From NCBI GenBank assembly GCA_963750165.1, contig CAVVPN010000012.1:928001-992000 (forward strand): a stretch of DNA of 64,000 bases, given 5' to 3'. Of this stretch, positions 6,461-15,624 are shown in pieces. Origin of the DNA: an uncultured Gemmataceae bacterium. GTDB taxonomy: Bacteria > Planctomycetota > Planctomycetia > Gemmatales > Gemmataceae. Under the pieces are notes generated by a model. It was given only the letters and a program-made list of their open reading frames with translations. It searched no databases and had not been told where the DNA came from. Positions within the stretch are counted from its first letter, which is position 1. Each line of letters opens with the position of its first letter. The position numbers and the translations under genes are program-made.

Positions 6461-7315
6461 TTATTCGGACTGTTCATACTCGGCCGGGGACACGTACCCC
6501 AGCGACGAGTGCCGGCGCCGCGTGTTGTAGAAGACCTCGATGTACTCGACGAGCGCCGCCCGCGCCTCCGCCCGGGTGGCGAAGTCGGCGTCGTGCACCA
6601 GTTCCTTCTTCAAGGAGGCGAAGAAGCTCTCCATCGGGGCATTGTCCCAGCAGTCGGCCCGGCGGCTCATGCTGCAGGTGATGCCGTGCTTGCCCAGGAG
6701 GCGTTGGTAGTGGTCGCTGGCGTACTGGCTGCCCCGGTCGGAGTGGGCCAGCAGCCCCTCCCCCGGCAGCCGGCGCTGCACCGCCAGCTCCAGGGCATCG
6801 ACGACCAGCCGGCTCTCCAGGTGGTCGGCCATCGACCAGCCCACCACCCGCCGCGAGTACAGGTCCTCGACGACGGCCAGGTACAGCCAACCCTCTCGGG
6901 TCGGGATGTAGGTGATGTCCGCCACCCACGCCTCGTTGGCCGCGGCGGGGTTGAACTGCCGATCCAGGAGGTTCGCGGCCACGGGCAGGTCGTGGTTGGA
7001 GTCGGTCGTGCAGCGGAACTTGCGGGCCGTCTTGGCCCGGAGGTCGTGGTCGTGCATGAGCCGGGCCACGGTGTTGACGCAGCAGTCCTGGCCCCGGGCG
7101 ACCAGCTCGGCGTGGATGCGCGGGCTGCCGTAGCGGGCCTTGACCTCGGCGTGGATGGCGCGGATTTCCACGAGGAGGGTGTCGCGGCGCCGGGCGCGGT
7201 CGCTGGCGGGGCGGTCGCGCCAGGCGTAGTAGCCGGCGGTCGAGACCTCCAGGGTTTCGCAGAGCAGGCGCACGGGCCACTGGCCGCGGTGTTCCTCGAT
7301 GAAGCGGAAGGTCAT
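6461..7315 (-). CDS. IS3 transposase OrfB (DDE integrase core)
   Basis: WVADITYI, HSDRGSQY, DNAPMESFF motifs. Confidence 0.95.
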   Translation of the reverse strand: MTFRFIEEHRGQWPVRLLCETLEVSTAGYYAWRDRPASDRARRRDTLLVEIRAIHAEVKARYGSPRIHAELVARGQDCCVNTVARLMHDHDLRAKTARKFRCTTDSNHDLPVAANLLDRQFNPAAANEAWVADITYIPTREGWLYLAVVEDLYSRRVVGWSMADHLESRLVVDALELAVQRRLPGEGLLAHSDRGSQYASDHYQRLLGKHGITCSMSRRADCWDNAPMESFFASLKKELVHDADFATRAEARAALVEYIEVFYNTRRRHSSLGYVSPAEYEQSE

Positions 7316-7608
7316 GTCGCCTCCCTGGCGAAGAACGCCGTCGCTTTTTTTAGGATGTCGCGCTCCGCCAGGAGCCGCTGGTTCTCGGCCCGGAGGCGGC
7401 GGTTCTCTTCCTCGAAGGGGGAGAGCTTGCCCTGGCCGGGGAAGGCTTGGCCGCCCTTGGCCTCCAGCGCCTGCTTCCAGGAGCGGAGCAGGGTCTCGTG
7501 GATGCCGAGGGAGCGTACGGCCTCGGCGACGGAGTAGCCCTGCTCAGTGACGAGCTTGACGGCCTCGAGCTTGAACTCCGGGGTGTAGGTACGTCGGGTT
7601 CTGGCCAT
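7312..7608 (-). CDS. IS3 transposase OrfA (HTH)
   Basis: RRTYTPEFKLEAV...ERDILKKA; A7G slippery site at 7344-7351; ATGA overlap with orfB. Confidence 0.95.
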   Translation of the reverse strand: MARTRRTYTPEFKLEAVKLVTEQGYSVAEAVRSLGIHETLLRSWKQALEAKGGQAFPGQGKLSPFEEENRRLRAENQRLLAERDILKKATAFFAREAT

Positions 7609-8146: not shown

Positions 8147-9115
8147 TCACGGTCGAGCGACTGCTTGGAGCCCGCTGCCCTGCCACCAGCGCCACGCCAG
8201 CGGCACCACACCCAGGCTCAGGTACAGCGTTAGCGTCCATACGCCCGACAGCGCCTCAATGCGCTTGCCGCGCCCGGCGTCCAGGCGCCGCAGATACTGC
8301 GCCGCCGTCAGCGCCGCCAGCGTCAGGCAACCGCCCAGCAGCACCGCCACCGGCAACACGAACCCGATCTGCCACGCTGCCAGCAGTGCCAGCGTCGCCG
8401 TCAGCGACAGCGCCCCCAGCCAGACGCCGACGGCCCCGCGCGGCCCCCACAGCACGCTGTAAGTGTTGACGCCGGCCTCCTCGTCCGCCGGGCTGCGGAC
8501 CTTGCGGCCGACCTCGATGACGACGCCGTTGCAGTAGCTGACCGCGACGAACCACTCCAGGCCGTGCGGCGGCGTCCCCTGGGCCGGCAGCCAGTCGCAG
8601 GCCGTGGCGTAGAAATCGACCAGCGGCATGATCATCATGTGCGACAGCAGGTAAATCACCGGCCGCGCCCGCAGCCAGTCCGCCGCGAAAAACTCCTTGC
8701 TCATCAGCGTGAAGTACGCCCACGTCAGCGCCAGCAGCAGCGCCAGCGCCGGCGACAGCCACAGCGCCAGGCCGAGCTGCACACCGCCCGCCAGCACGCC
8801 GAGCACGCCCAGCTCGCGCAGCCGGATGAGGCCGCGCGGCACCGGACGGTAGGGCCGATAGCGGGCGTCCTCCTCGAAATCCTTGAACTCGTCGGCGATG
8901 CGCAGTTGCAGGAAGAACAGGAACGACGTGGCGAACGCCACCAGCGCACCGGCGACCTCGACCGACGTGCGGCTGCGCAGCAGTGCTGAGTAGCTGACCG
9001 CAGACAGGCTGAACGCGACGATCAGCAGGCCGTGCGCCACAACCGGAAAGCGCTCGCGCTGATAGGTCCACCAGCGTGAAAGAAACGGCGTATCAGCGAG
9101 GGCGGGTTCACTCAT
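8147..9115 (-). CDS. UbiA-family prenyltransferase
   Basis: Multi-TM; Asp-rich LRIADEFKDFEEDARYRPYRPVPRG; start overlaps the HMGR stop. Confidence 0.85.
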   Translation of the reverse strand: MSEPALADTPFLSRWWTYQRERFPVVAHGLLIVAFSLSAVSYSALLRSRTSVEVAGALVAFATSFLFFLQLRIADEFKDFEEDARYRPYRPVPRGLIRLRELGVLGVLAGGVQLGLALWLSPALALLLALTWAYFTLMSKEFFAADWLRARPVIYLLSHMMIMPLVDFYATACDWLPAQGTPPHGLEWFVAVSYCNGVVIEVGRKVRSPADEEAGVNTYSVLWGPRGAVGVWLGALSLTATLALLAAWQIGFVLPVAVLLGGCLTLAALTAAQYLRRLDAGRGKRIEALSGVWTLTLYLSLGVVPLAWRWWQGSGLQAVARP

Positions 9116-10400
9116 GGGCGGCCGCCTTCTCCGCCAGCTTGCCGCGCGCGAGCAGGCGGTGCGCCCGGCTGAAGTCGCCGGAGCACAGCGCCCCAATGAT
9201 CGACAGTTCGCCCGCCAGGCACAGCGCCGCCGTCACCTCCGCGAGCGCCTGCGCCTTGCCGGGGCCGGCCAGCCCCAGCACCTCCAGGCACGCCCGCTGC
9301 GTCGGCAGACCGGTGCCGCCGCCGACCGTGCCGACCATGATGTTCGGCAGCGTCACACTGGCGTACAGGTCGCCGCCCTGCACCTCGAAGCGCGTCACGC
9401 CCACCGCCGACTCCGCCACGCACGCCACGTCCTGCCCCGTCGCCAGATACAGGGCGGCCAGGCCGTTGGCGTAGTGGCCATGCACGCCCACCGTGCCGCT
9501 CAGCACACCGCCCAGCGCCGACATCCGCCAGTAGTTGACCATGTGCTCCGGTGTCGTGTGCAGCCTTTTCTCCACCAGCGCCGCCGACAGCAGCGCTTCC
9601 GCCGACACTTTTTTGCCACGCACCAGCAGGAACGACTGAGCGCTGGCCTTCTTGTCGCCGGACAGGTTCGCCTCCACGAACGAATATTGCGGCGCCACCG
9701 GGCTGGCCTCGCGGATGTAGTCGCAGACGGCCTCGGTCGCCAGCGTCACCATGTTCTGGCCGGAGGCGTCGCCGGTCGTGAAGTCGAAGCTCAGATAGAC
9801 GTGGTTGCCCTCGATGGTGATGCGCAGGTCCACCAGCTTGCCGTGCCGCGTGGTCGCCTCGGCGCGGCGGCGGAACTCGTCCATCTGCGTGGTCACCCAG
9901 GCCAGGAACAGGCCCGTCTCCTGGAAGTTGCGGAAGGCGAAGCCGGGGGCGCGGCTGACGCCCTCGTTGAGCACGACCGCACTGCAACCGCCCGCCTCGC
10001 TCAGCAGTTGGCTGCCGCGGCTGTACGACGCCACCAGGGCCGCCTCGGTGGTCGCCAGCGGCACGTAGTAGTCACCCTGGGCGTGCAGACCGTTGACGCG
10101 CAGCGGCCCGGCCAGGCCGATCGGCAACCGGACCACGCCAATGAAGTTCTCAACGTTGTGTTTGTAGCACTCGCGCTGCTCCAGCGTCAGCGCGTCCAGC
10201 AGAGTGGGCCGGGCGTCCGCGGCGACGGACAGCAGCGCCCAGCGGCGTTCGAGGGCCTCGGCGGACAGGTCGGCGCCGCCGGGGATTTTCGGAGCGGGGT
10301 TGTCGGTGCGCGGCGCGAGGCGGCGCACCAGGTCTTCCTGCGTGCGGCCCTGGAGCAGACGCTCCAGGTAGCCGCTGGCGTGGCGGTGGTCGGCGGACAT
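9108..10400 (-). CDS. hmgA: Hydroxymethylglutaryl-CoA reductase (class I-like)
   Basis: ENFIG, PLATTEAALVAS, TGDASGQNM, GTVGGGT, GELS, C-terminal His. Confidence 0.9.
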   Translation of the reverse strand: MSADHRHASGYLERLLQGRTQEDLVRRLAPRTDNPAPKIPGGADLSAEALERRWALLSVAADARPTLLDALTLEQRECYKHNVENFIGVVRLPIGLAGPLRVNGLHAQGDYYVPLATTEAALVASYSRGSQLLSEAGGCSAVVLNEGVSRAPGFAFRNFQETGLFLAWVTTQMDEFRRRAEATTRHGKLVDLRITIEGNHVYLSFDFTTGDASGQNMVTLATEAVCDYIREASPVAPQYSFVEANLSGDKKASAQSFLLVRGKKVSAEALLSAALVEKRLHTTPEHMVNYWRMSALGGVLSGTVGVHGHYANGLAALYLATGQDVACVAESAVGVTRFEVQGGDLYASVTLPNIMVGTVGGGTGLPTQRACLEVLGLAGPGKAQALAEVTAALCLAGELSIIGALCSGDFSRAHRLLARGKLAEKAAAHE

Positions 10401-11674: not shown

Positions 11675-11706
11675 AAAAAAAGGCCCCGGCGGGCTGACCG
11701 GGGCCT
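11675..11706 (-). terminator. Intrinsic terminator
   Basis: ggccccgg/ccggggcc stem followed by T7 on the minus strand, 40 bp after the stop at 11746. Confidence 0.8.
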
Positions 11707-11745: not shown

Positions 11746-12723
11746 TTACTTGATGCCGGAAGCCTTTTTCAGGTTGAGCCGGCTCGGGAACGGATCGACC
11801 ATTTCCACCGGGCGCGTCGTGATGCGCTCACCGAGGATGCCCTCGAAGACCGCACCGTACACCTTCTCGATCTTGACCATGCAGTGGGCGGCCATCAGGT
11901 GATGGACGCGGCCCTGGTTGCCGAGCCGCCAACCCTTGCCGACGCGGTCTCGCACAATAGCGGTGGGGATCGCGCCCTTGGCCATCTTCGCTTGCAGGTG
12001 GAGCAGTTTCACGTCGGGGCCGTCGATGGGCGGCGGCGGCAGTTTCGGGGCCAGCGGTTGGCCGGTCGGGTCGCGGTAGGTCAGGGGGCTTTTGGGATCC
12101 TGCTCGTCGGGCGGGTCGAAGGTCACCGGCTGCACGACCAGGCCGTATTCGGTGCGCAACTTCTCGGCGTGGGCTTTCCGCAGAATCGCCTTGAAGGTGC
12201 CGCCGTCGCCCTTGCATTCCTTGATGGCCTTCTCGGTGGTCGCAACCACCCATTTGGCCTCGCGCAGCATCGTGGCGGCGTCCACCGGCCCGGCAATACA
12301 GTGCAGCACGCGGCCGTCGGGAGCGCAGAAGTACGCGGCAACGTTGCCGCCCTGCTTCTGCTTGCCGACGATGCGGAAGGTGCCGACGCGCTGGAACGAC
12401 GACACGAAATACTCGTTCAGATACTTCCCGACTTGCGGATTGGCCAGAGCGTTCACACGGAGCGCTTCCGCGTTGTTTCAGGTGAAGTCGGGGTCTTCAA
12501 AATCGCCCGAGACGTGGAGGACAAGCACGAGCTTCTCCTCCTTGAGGGCCTGTCGGGCGGCCTCGCTCGGGGTCTTGAGGAACTTGACGGACGTGCCGAA
12601 GTCGCCGGTGCAGACGCCGCCATCGCCCTGCAACGGGTTCTTGACCGTTTTGCCGCCCTGGGCGTGGCCGACACCCGCGCCGAGCAGCAGGGCCGCCACG
12701 ACACCCACAAGGATTCGACGCAC
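11746..12723 (-). CDS. Secreted thioredoxin-fold protein with in-frame TGA at codon 82; candidate selenoprotein (SelN-like), 325 aa
   Basis: ORFs 12478-12723 and 11746-12456 share one frame and are separated only by TGA plus 7 sense codons; AAGGAGG RBS and signal peptide. Confidence 0.7.
12448..12466 (-). promoter_or_regulatory. Candidate bacterial SECIS hairpin
   Basis: AGCGCTC-CGTGT-GAACGCT; loop begins 18 nt after the UGA with G at its second position; short stem with one mismatch. Confidence 0.4.
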
Positions 12724-12868
12724 TGCATCCCTCCTTTCGCCTGCTCTTCCCCATCAGGGGCTGCGAAACCCACGAGTCGCGCTCGCGGGTCTTCACCCAT
12801 TATGACGACTCAGGCGGGACGAAGTTTGTAACAATCGTGTCACGAGACAGCGGCAGCCTCGTTCCCGA

Positions 12869-13040
12869 TTTCATCTCACGAGGGTGATATGAAATAACTC
12901 ATTGGGCACAAAGCAGTTGCCGTTTCGTCTCACGTTTCTCTCACACCCCTATTGGCCAAACGACGCCCGTCCGGGTTCGGTTGTGCCTGCCGGCGCACGG
13001 CGTTGCCAGTGCGAAGTGCCCGCCTGGGCACAGCCGCGCC
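12869..13040 (-). repeat. ~172-bp non-coding element, copy B
   Basis: Reverse complement aligns to 868-1040. Confidence 0.85.
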
Positions 13041-13050
13041 GCTGGGTGCC

Positions 13051-13089
13051 TGCATGGTTTACGTGCAGCGCGTGCTTTACCACCTTGCA
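13051..13089. promoter_or_regulatory. Two NtrC-like enhancer sites
   Basis: TGCATGGTTTACGTGCA and TGCTTTACCACCTTGCA (TGC-N11-GCA), centres 22 bp apart, upstream of amt. Confidence 0.45.
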
Positions 13090-13186
13090 GGCCCGGCAAG
13101 CGTCTGGCCTGTTTCGCTCCATGCCAAACGACGTTATTGTTTGCTGTTGATGCACTTATGTTGACGAGATTCGCTCAATCAGGGCG

Positions 13187-13202
13187 CGGTATGGGAATTG
13201 CT
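13187..13202 (+). promoter_or_regulatory. Sigma-54 -24/-12 promoter candidate
   Basis: CGGTATGGGAATTGCT (GG-N10-GC) about 80 bp before the amt start. Confidence 0.55.
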
Positions 13203-13280
13203 GCACCCCTCCCCAACGTGACCGTTCACTCTCCGGTTGTCCAGTCTGACGACCAACAGCGTCACGTGGAGGTTACGCAC

Positions 13281-15076
13281 TTGAAACCGTTATGCTGGGC
13301 GTTGGCGGCCCTGGTCTGTCTATCCATTTGTGGTGATTTTGCACGGGCGGACGAACCCAAGGAACCACCGGTTACGAAAAGCCAGGTTGATGATGCCGCC
13401 GCGCACGGCGACATCGCCTGGATGCTGATCTCAACTGGCCTGGTGCTGTTCATGGTGCCCGGCCTGGCGCTGTTTTATGGCGGCATGGTGCGGCAAAAGA
13501 ATCTGCTCGGCACCATGATGCAGAGCATGGTGGCGCTGGGGTTGGTCGGCATTCACTGGGTGCTCATCGGCTACTGCCTGGCGTTCGGCCACACGCAGGG
13601 CGGTTGGATCGGTTGGTCTGGCGACTTCCTGGGGTTGCAGGGCATTCTGGAGTTGAACGAGAAGGGTGAATGGGTCCACAAAACATATCCCGGCACCTCG
13701 CTCCCGATTCTGCTGCACTGCATGTATCAGGGCATGTTCGCGATCATCACGCCGGCACTGATTAGCGGGGCGCTGGCGGAACGTATCCGGTTTGGGCCGT
13801 ACTGCCTGTTCATGCTGTTGTGGGCAACGCTGGTGTACGCGCCGCTGGCCCACTGGGTATGGGCGGTCAGGCCGCTGGCCGACAACAAGACGGAACCGGC
13901 GGGCTGGCTTGGGGCGCTGGGGGCGCTGGACTTCGCGGGCGGCACGGTGGTCCACATTGCCGCCGGCTTCTCGGCCCTGGCGGCGATCCTGGTGCTGCGC
14001 AGCGCCTGGGCTACCCGGAGCACGTCAGCCATCCGAACAGCATGGTGTTGACGCTGCTGGGCGCCGGCCTGTTGTGGTTCGGCTGGTTCGGCTTCAACGG
14101 CGGCAGTGCCCTGGCGAGCAATGGCCTGGCGGTCTCGGCGTTGGCGGCGTCGCAGGTGGCGGCGGCCGCGGCGGCCGTGTCGTGGATGGTGACCGAATGG
14201 TGGCACCGCGGCAAGCCGACCGCCCTGGGCTTTGCGTCCGGGCTGGTGGCCGGCCTGGTGGCGGTGACGCCGTCGTCCGGCTACGTGCTGCCCGGGCAGG
14301 CGCTGCTGATTGGCCTGATCGCCGGCGTCGTGTGCTACGGCATGGTGTGTCTGAAGCCGGTCCTCAAGTACGACGACTCGCTGGACGCCTTCGGCGTTCA
14401 CGGCGTCGGCGGGTTCCTGGGGGCGGTGCTGACGGGCGTGTTTGTCTCGACGGCGGTGCAGCAGGCGGGCGCCGGCACGGACCCGAAGGACGTGGGCGTT
14501 GTGCTCAAACACGGTCTGGCGGCCCAGGTGGGGGTGCAGTTGCTGGCCGCGCTGGTGGCGGCGGCCTTTTCCTTCGTGGCGTCGCTGGTACTGGTCAAGG
14601 TGGTTGACGTGCTGTGCGGCGGCTTCTGCCTGGACGCCCGTGCCGAGAATGAGGGCCTGGATCGCGTGGCCCACGGCGAGGTGGCTTTCGACCTGGGGCC
14701 GGCACTCGATGTGCCGGTGGACCACACGCCGCACCACGAACCGCGGCCCGCGCTGGTGCCGCCCAACGGCCAGAAGCGTTTCACGGTCGTCGTGGACGGC
14801 GTGCCCACCGAGCAACTGATCAACATCTGGTCGCAGTTGTGCCAGACGGGCGCGGCGCCGCCGAGCACGGAGTTTCTGACGGTGTATCCGTTCGTGACCA
14901 CGGTTCAGGGCAATCGCTTCCGCTTCCGCGGCGGCGATCCCACGGTGATGAAGGAGAGTTTGCAGCGGTTGTTTCAGCAACACTTCCACGGCTCGCTTCA
15001 GACCTATCTTGAAAGCGGCCCCGGCAACGGCCGTGTCCGGGCGGACGCCCTTGTGTCCGCCGGCACACCGGGCTAG
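13281..15076 (+). CDS. amtB: Ammonium transporter with C-terminal extension, frameshift near 14000
   Basis: PGLALFYGG, DFAGGTVVH, WFGWFGFNGGS, DDSLDAFGVHG; TTG start after GGAGG; two frames joined at ctgcgc-agcgc. Confidence 0.9.
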
Positions 15077-15194
15077 GAGCGCGACTTCCTGCGGTCGTCC
15101 AGCGGACGGCCCGCACCTGCCTTTGATTGCCAGTCCACGCGGGGCACGGAACGGAGCCGTACCGTGCCCCGCTTACTTTTCCTACACTGATTCC

Positions 15195-15250
15195 GTGGGG
15201 CAGACATTCCAGTCTGCCGGTCCCTCGGCAGGCTGGAATGTCTGCCCCAC
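15195..15250. repeat. REPIN-like palindrome, GTGGGGCAGACATTCC family
   Basis: Inverted pair; second copy at 44793-44848. Confidence 0.85.
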
Positions 15251-15270
15251 GAAGAAGAGGAACTCTCCCG

Positions 15271-15624
15271 ATGAAAATGGTGGTTGCGATCATCCGCCCC
15301 GAGCAGTTGGAGGCGGTGCAGGCGGCGCTGAATGAACATGACGTATATCTGATGACGGTCAGTGACGTGCGCGGCTGCGGCCGGCAGCGCGGCTACACGG
15401 AGGTATACCGCGGCACCGAATTTCAGGTGCGGTTGCTGCCGAAGGTGAAGCTGGAGATCGCGGTGAACGAGGCGTTTGTAGAGGCGGCCGTGGAGGCCAT
15501 TGTCCACGCGGCGCGCATGGGCGAGACGGGCCAGATCGGCGACGGCAAGATTTTCGTGCTGCCGCTGGACGATTGTGTCCGCATCCGCACCGGCGAACGC
15601 GGCCCGCAGGCGATTGGACCGTAA
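15271..15624 (+). CDS. glnK: P-II nitrogen regulatory protein
   Basis: AIIRPEQL, GRQRG, YRG, TGQIGDGKIFV, RIRTGERG; adjacent to amt. Confidence 0.93.
   Translation: MKMVVAIIRPEQLEAVQAALNEHDVYLMTVSDVRGCGRQRGYTEVYRGTEFQVRLLPKVKLEIAVNEAFVEAAVEAIVHAARMGETGQIGDGKIFVLPLDDCVRIRTGERGPQAIGP

Follow-up and report, generated by a model that had tools for sequence, protein, structure and literature searches.

A gene that standard annotation cuts in two at an in-frame TGA, in the genome of an uncultured Gemmataceae bacterium, probably encodes a single selenoprotein. We propose that its codon 82 is read as selenocysteine (Sec), yielding a 325-aa predicted exported thioredoxin-fold protein that is likely a single-selenol redox enzyme, and we give this reading as a whole a probability of about 0.82. 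Recoding of the UGA as Sec had been suggested by an earlier sequence-only reading of this DNA, and it is supported by conservation of the TGA, by the Sec machinery (selA, selB, selC and selD) present in the genome, by a conserved hairpin after the TGA and by thioredoxin-type profile matches of the family. On these comparative grounds the Sec reading of codon 82 itself is strongly supported, and Sec insertion, export, catalysis and the nature of the substrate are predicted from them.

Within the window (the whole stretch of 64,000 nucleotides that was analysed), an 81-aa open reading frame (ORF; 12723-12478) and a 236-aa ORF (12456-11746) lie in one minus-strand frame that, when translated, is broken only by the TGA (Table 1). 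The sequence-only reading had described this arrangement correctly, together with the F-T-U-N peptide context and a strong ribosome-binding site; GGAGG-type sites are also found upstream of most close homologues. The signal peptide that it had proposed fits a simple charge and hydrophobicity rule, as do the N termini of 26 of 29 close homologues. The single terminator that it had listed is present as a hairpin followed by a T run and is weak evidence taken alone, as the terminator scan found 2 sites against 1.6 expected by chance.

Table 1 Features of the candidate selenoprotein gene and its surroundings, in window coordinates
Feature	Position	Strand	Basis
Ribosome-binding site AAGGAGG (GTG start 6 nt downstream)	12730..12736	(-)	sequence
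Complete 325-codon gene with TAA stop and a single in-frame TGA	11746..12723	(-)	frame translation
Predicted signal peptide, residues 1-21	12661..12723	(-)	charge/hydrophobicity heuristic
Cys38	12610..12612	(-)	kept in 24/27 locus rows of alignment A1, 3 gaps
Thioredoxin-like domain (Trx7/DUF255 type), ~residues 42-160	12244..12600	(-)	family profile matches
TGA codon 82, likely selenocysteine	12478..12480	(-)	aligned to first Cys of CxxC
SECIS-like upper stem-loop, 11-nt spacer after UGA	12448..12466	(-)	conservation, folding
Hairpin loop CGUGU, 18 nt after UGA	12459-12455	(-)	folding
Arg89 (U+7), near-invariant; CGT codon inside the hairpin loop	12457..12459	(-)	homologue alignment
Val90 GTG, taken by gene callers as false start of the 236-aa ORF	12454..12456	(-)	ORF list
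Cys133 in YFC-x-PDG	12325..12327	(-)	kept in 82/87 rows of A1 (close family)
C-terminal region without a known family, comprising a helix, a Pro-rich insert and a conserved end	11749..12243	(-)	
Intrinsic terminator-like hairpin, then T run	11681..11706	(-)	terminator scan

To assess conservation of the TGA, we scanned GTDB genomes with six seed patterns, none of which included the column itself. The scan returned 25 close loci, mostly titled Gemmataceae or Planctomycetota, and all 25 carry TGA at the column (24 in frame and 1 beside a frameshift). In a sample of 401 Planctomycetota genomes, a single-protein search found matches in 32, and a 27-sequence profile found matches in 115, at 242 places; the best 150 of these 242 places contained one TGA in 133 cases, no stop in 17 and TAA or TAG in none. 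A wider census, for which 100 further regions were fetched to cover most though not all of the listed places and from which 5 gap rows were dropped, comprised 169 distinct homologous genes, with TGA in 150, TGC or TGT in 17, TCG (Ser) in 1 and GCC (Ala) in 1; the census script scored TGA as Cys, which favours TGA, whereas the profile count of 133 of 150 treats all stops alike. Trp, Arg, TAA and TAG, the states that the sequence-only reading had named as evidence against recoding, were found in 0 of the 169 distinct genes. Conservation extends to the flanks on both sides of the column, and the Cys-containing homologues that the same reading had anticipated were found, in the form of 14 Cys genes seen at the DNA level and belonging to one distant subfamily. 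A further 5 closer database proteins have Cys at the column, known from the protein level with codons unseen. Two JGI proteins (P0152 and P0153) also show Cys, which may be a real Cys or a Sec written as C; a metagenome scan for close homologues whose codon at the column ends in a base other than A gave only 3 matches, all unrelated, so these two remain ambiguous and were not counted.

The close and wide alignments, which share members, represent one family, and this family is much expanded. Five fully searched genomes contained 9 to 30 profile matches each, with 23 of the 30 in one genome carrying TGA by eye. The genome studied here has a paralogue on a second contig (L078:4586-5835, contig C3) with the same F-T-TGA-N-N-A-E context and hairpin, followed by a one-base frameshift that is probably an assembly error; its product has a long Pro-rich N terminus and a hydrophobic, anchor-like stretch. 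The sequence-only reading had set the TGA apart from indel errors nearby, and the distinction holds: indels break an amtB-like gene (into two frames) and the paralogue, and the TGA is common to many genomes. Neighbourhood clustering of 26 loci revealed no conservation of adjacent genes. The sole recurrent neighbour, a cystathionine gamma-lyase-like gene, occurs at 4 of the 26 loci and is absent beside the window copy; gene context therefore points to no substrate.

All four genes of the Sec machinery, whose presence had been proposed as a check, were found in the 9.6-Mb genome, which is 93% complete. The selA (E 3.6e-170), selB and selD matches were all above cut-offs, as was tRNA-Sec (selC; 71.6 bits) above that of Rfam. 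SelD of this genome has Cys, not Sec, in the stretch read, and a second tRNA-SeC call made by ARAGORN on contig C11 was rejected, being without Rfam support. As a positive control, the genome contains a molybdopterin oxidoreductase gene with an in-frame TGA in a U-H-S context (C3:1169930, minus strand), which we take from its motif to be of the fdhA type. This gene (I-U-H-S) is one of three further likely selenoprotein genes, the others being peroxiredoxin-like (C12:1195919, minus strand; W-U-P-F-C) and TlpA-like (C3:2187769, minus strand; G-U-I-N-C), and each has a hairpin after the TGA.

Across the phylum, selA was found in 288 of the 401 sampled genomes but in only 1 of 20 genomes of one family (f2), suggesting that Sec use is common in uncultured lineages. 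As descriptive counts rather than tests, given that the genomes are kin, selA was present in 29 of 30 other TGA-carrying genomes among the single-protein matches compared with 287 of 400 overall, and in 70 of 73 TGA carriers among the profile matches listed (by eye), the misses there being 67-84% complete. The one selA-less carrier in the former set (84% complete) has selB and no tRNA-Sec match. Cys forms are not limited to Sec-less genomes, as 10 of 14 Cys-carrying genomes have selA; the one Cys carrier among the single-protein matches, 100% complete, has no selA, selB or selC above cut-off.

The consensus hairpin of the close family pairs columns 15-33 after the T of the TGA, leaving an 11-nt spacer and presenting a CGUGU loop 18 nt after the UGA; a weaker lower stem may extend to 12471/12443. 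A loop at this distance had been claimed in the sequence-only reading, and it exists, but in the window copy folded alone a rival hairpin wins: the family hairpin then has a pairing probability of ~3%, and the window hairpin is not better than shuffles (z ~0). The family hairpin is the best fold once the first 11 nt after the UGA are omitted, and the ribosome would be expected to keep these nucleotides out of folding. Like fdhA- and fdhF-type genes, the gene has its hairpin in the coding region right after the UGA, with G in the first two loop positions and a loop at 16-37 nt. Compared with the hairpin of the fdhA-type gene of the same genome, it has the same spacer and loop position, but its upper stem is much weaker (-3.8 versus -14.2 kcal/mol) and contains a C-A mismatch. 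The bSECIS model, as given in the accessible text of PMC13188914, places G in the first two loop positions and the loop 16-37 nt from the UGA. Tested against this geometry, with a stem and an energy of -7.5 kcal/mol or lower in addition, the window hairpin agrees, with -8.2 kcal/mol for the full stem, although it is not the lowest-energy fold of the window copy.

In this GC-rich genome a loose scan for SECIS-like hairpins gave 604 hits and was useless as evidence, so the hairpin is meaningful only through its conservation. One hairpin rule passes 146 of 148 TGA genes (2 frameshifted genes dropped), 0 of 14 Cys genes (the main Cys subfamily; 3 Cys domains outside it were left out) and 383 of 3539 in-frame background sites (11%), a contrast that is overstated as a statistic because the rule was adjusted with the data already in view and the genes are related. 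Arg at U+7 is found in 144 of 148 TGA genes and in 14 of 14 Cys genes; its codon is CGC, the commonest Arg codon in this genome, in 0 of the 144 TGA genes compared with 12 of the 14 Cys genes. Among 24 close homologues, Arg89 is encoded by CGT in 22, compared with 8% elsewhere, and codons 87, 88, 90 and 91 lack synonymous changes altogether; of all 13-codon windows in the gene, 79-91 is under the strongest constraint. A pre-set window (codons 83-95) gave P 0.02 overall and P 0.11 when restricted to four- and six-fold codons. Covariation in the close family was not above shuffles (93 of 500). In a set of 22 distant genes, a stem of 7 pairs, with the loop at 23 nt, shows 91.6% pairing and 11 two-sided changes, and covariation exceeds all 500 shuffles. 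The loop has moved from 18 to 23-24 nt in distant subfamilies with a CGUG-type loop retained, and the family offers a natural test of SECIS evolution, with a hairpin that shifts register between subfamilies and disappears in Cys forms.

The window protein alone had no sequence match in Pfam, NCBIfam or the PDB, and its fold was assigned at the level of the family. Of 27 members, 9 matched Thioredoxin_7 (PF13899) and 6 matched DUF255, and the family profile matched PDB 3ira (E 2.8e-6) as well as 2lst, 2kuc and AGR2/3. In the PDB profile alignments the U82 column falls on the first Cys of CxxC, in line with the earlier suggestion that the TGA occupies the redox-residue position of a thioredoxin fold. 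An Atlas model of a Cys relative resembled thioredoxin clusters with a TM of 0.59-0.67 and unnamed clusters from Cyanobacteriota, Myxococcota and Planctomycetota with a TM of 0.95-0.97. The N-terminal domain is therefore akin in fold to Thioredoxin_7 and Thioredox_DsbH (PF13899 and PF03190; 3ira, 2lst and 2kuc) and to AGR2/AGR3, but differs from them in having Sec for Cys with no second Cys at +3. In addition, the loop leading to the nucleophile is 5-7 residues longer, the second strand is followed by an insertion, and the C-terminal region is specific to the family. Position +3 is Gly in 73, Ala in 72, Leu in 2 and Asn in 1 of 148 TGA genes, such that a CxxC or UxxC dithiol motif is absent (Gly or Ala in 145 of 148, Cys in none).

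We propose the following mechanism. During translation the ribosome would hold the UGA with the first ~11 nt behind it single-stranded, the hairpin at +12 to +30 would fold and bind SelB-Sec-tRNA, and Sec would be inserted at the UGA in competition with RF2. The protein would be exported via its signal peptide. Its U82 would take the position of the attacking Cys of thioredoxins, at the beginning of the active-site helix, and would likely be tuned by the Arg at U+7. Without a Cys at +3, U82 may target envelope substrates that carry an oxidised thiol, a disulfide or a peroxide, and may be re-reduced by the conserved Cys38 or Cys133, or by a partner reductase; Cys38 is a possible partner of either Cys133 or the Sec. 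As a role, our best guess is that the protein repairs or isomerises oxidised cysteines of exported proteins.

The sequence-only reading had likened the protein to human selenoprotein N (SELENON). According to the accessible text of PMC12839072 and PMC8967691, SELENON spans the membrane once, has a thioredoxin-like domain in the lumen and carries Sec462 in an SCUG motif; published numbering further gives Gly463, Arg466 (U+4) and Arg469 (U+7; from the accessible text of PMC3541580), with an EF-hand and a membrane anchor, and the available portions of PMC8584023 and PMC3541580 describe a coding-region hairpin (SRE) right after the UGA of SEPN1. The two have in common a thioredoxin-like domain that is extracytoplasmic (predicted here) and contains a single Sec, an Arg at U+7 and, in the coding region, a hairpin right after the UGA. 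Our family could, though we consider it unlikely, be a true bacterial homologue of the SELENON catalytic domain and work like it, as a Sec reductase on the opposite side of a membrane that reduces oxidised cysteines of a transporter or another membrane protein. The Arg corresponding to human R469 in 144 of 148 TGA genes speaks for such descent, as other residues occupy U+7 in four aligned PDB thioredoxin-type chains (3ira, AGR3, AGR2 and 2lst); so do the 47 of 148 relatives that have Cys at U-1, the 21 of 148 that have Arg at U+4, one distant member (L263) with C-U-G together with Arg+7, and the N-terminal hydrophobic anchor of the paralogue in this genome. Against it, only the Sec and the Arg at U+7 are shared by the window protein under published numbering, and a single Arg in common is slim evidence. 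Around the Sec the window protein reads F-T-U-N, with Glu at U+4, and lacks the SCUG motif with its S-C before and G after the Sec; Pfam found no EF-hand or other match, the N terminus has the shape of a predicted cleavable signal peptide instead of a membrane anchor, and the length is 325 rather than the 590 aa of SELENON, which is a protein of animals and some algae. No eukaryotic protein appeared among the best 45 and 120 matches listed (8000 candidates scored) or among the Atlas rows, in searches that are weak for distant relatives, and a search of 301 phylum genomes for a C-U-G-S-G-R gene pattern stayed at chance level relative to a reversed control.

We therefore treat the SELENON resemblance as a tentative lead and not as membership. 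A bolder version, to which we give slightly less credence still, is that the family is one branch of a large bacterial selenoprotein superfamily hidden by annotation, to which the SELENON catalytic domain is related or from which it derives, with the SECIS over the Arg+7 codons as forerunner of the SRE. If so, the catalytic chemistry of a muscle-disease protein could be studied in small soluble models, and the family may be a main reason that most sampled Planctomycetota keep the Sec machinery; a SELENON link of any such kind would open tractable bacterial models for a human myopathy protein.

It is improbable that Sec is inserted at codon 82 but is non-catalytic, its selenol binding a metal or forming a stable Se-S link in an envelope binding or scaffold module. 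The lack of CxxC would fit such a module, as would the up to ~20 paralogues per genome with varied tails, which suggest substrate-binding diversity. Relatives also do without the residue: among the best 150 of 994 database representatives, 23 span the column, with Cys in 5, Ser in 5, Ala in 5, Gly in 3, Glu in 2, a gap in 2 and Leu in 1. The redox residue can thus be lost, and the domain may there have a non-redox role. Even so, the Sec sits at the nucleophile position of thioredoxin folds and is kept throughout the superfamily along with a costly hairpin, and most characterised thioredoxin-fold selenoproteins are redox enzymes (PMC13188914, accessible text).

It is very improbable that the TGA is a conserved real stop or is read through by a non-Sec route, whether in a two-gene operon, by Trp readthrough or under a reassigned code. 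TGA is the main stop of the genome, ending 1611 of the 2454 long coding-type ORFs, the window hairpin is weak, and the downstream half is stored in databases as a separate protein. This last point is what the sequence-only reading expected of standard annotation, and 105 of the best 150 database representatives indeed begin just after the column. The break, however, interrupts a single domain, TAA or TAG never takes the place of the TGA among the matches listed, Cys homologues are continuous, and both the hairpin and the codon bias track the TGA and vanish in Cys genes. Reassignment of TGA was considered and rejected, because TGA ends most long ORFs, the RF2 gene prfB is present and many homologues end in TGA. 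A sequencing error or pseudogene, in which a Cys or Trp codon was misread as or mutated to TGA, has frameshift-type breaks in the assembly in its favour and is refuted by the conservation of the same TGA in 150 distinct genes from dozens of genomes.

Comparison with known selenoproteins suggests that the family has gone uncatalogued. The only selenoprotein models matched repeatedly were those of the VPGUxxT family thioredoxin-like (seleno)proteins of types 1 and 2 (NF041382 and NF041383; OS_HP5), with matches from 6 members in a set of 27 and from 3 in a set of 46. These resemble our family in having Sec at the active-site turn of a Trx7-type fold, and the published representative has the same strand-Sec-helix layout (PMC12013277, accessible text). 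Unlike them, our family lacks the VPGU motif, having instead a G-x(6-8)-U loop with Arg at U+7; family scores were 18.4 and 13.2 bits against a cut-off of 275 (NF041383 being the nearest model, at 18.4), and the window protein itself matched neither model. The Trx7/PDZ selenoprotein model NF041199 (CxxU, PDZ) gave one weak member match in each search (27- and 46-member sets) and none for the window protein.

A 2026 catalogue of 119 entries contains none that fits by name or motif in the accessible text of PMC13188914, where no passage on a bacterial SELENON or on Planctomycetes was found; the families of Haft and Tolstoy 2025 were compared via the table of this 2026 review and NCBIfam only. 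A description of the family was likewise not found in the literature searched, which was mostly non-subscription and included the available text of PMC12013277, PMC13326102, PMC4807772 and PMC7539508. One 'hypothetical' candidate with a Rhodopirellula Cys homologue in Table S9 of PMC4807772, as far as that source was accessible, could be a member. The family is thus absent from the selenoprotein lists checked, and is large, much expanded and very probably Sec-encoding; it is invisible in annotation because gene callers cut at the UGA. It adds a single-Sec, predicted exported thioredoxin-type protein to a catalogue dominated by UxxC and CxxU motifs.

Several observations concern the wider family. 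Tandem pairs or runs of members are common (loci L184, L219, L073, L221, L225, L226 and L212), and at L219 and L205 Sec domains adjoin Cys-only domains in the same frame. A Planctomycetota subfamily (P0005, P0165, P0174 and similar proteins) that is ~50% identical to the window protein is missing ~13 residues, including the Sec site and Arg+7. Weaker matches (L248-L267) represent additional, separate subfamilies of thioredoxin type that carry a TGA, followed in each case by a hairpin, in the contexts W-U-P-A, H-C-U-A-T, Q-C-U-I-G-G, Y-C-U-L-G-G, D-C-U-A-G, C-T-U-N-N-G and W-U-G-Y-C. Contigs from soil RNA libraries of four studies cover parts of the gene, mostly at <90% identity and with a pile-up at the Sec/SECIS segment; as they represent relatives and not this strain, include no listed piece that bridges the TGA and, being contigs, cannot show expression, they were not counted as evidence.

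Elsewhere in the window, the ORF list contains an IS3-type transposase pair, as we judge from motifs, at 6461-7608 on the minus strand (orfA 7312-7608, orfB 6461-7315). At 8147-10400 on the same strand lie what are presumably, again by their motifs, genes for a hydroxymethylglutaryl-CoA reductase-like protein and, after it, a UbiA-like prenyltransferase. On the plus strand at 12981-15624, a transporter gene split over two frames is followed by a second gene; we take these to be an ammonium transporter (amtB-like) and a P-II (glnK-type) gene, likewise from motifs, and the two-frame break is probably an indel error. Between the divergent amtB-like gene and the candidate selenoprotein gene lies a 12-bp inverted repeat with a 4-nt gap (12868-12895), possibly a regulator site.
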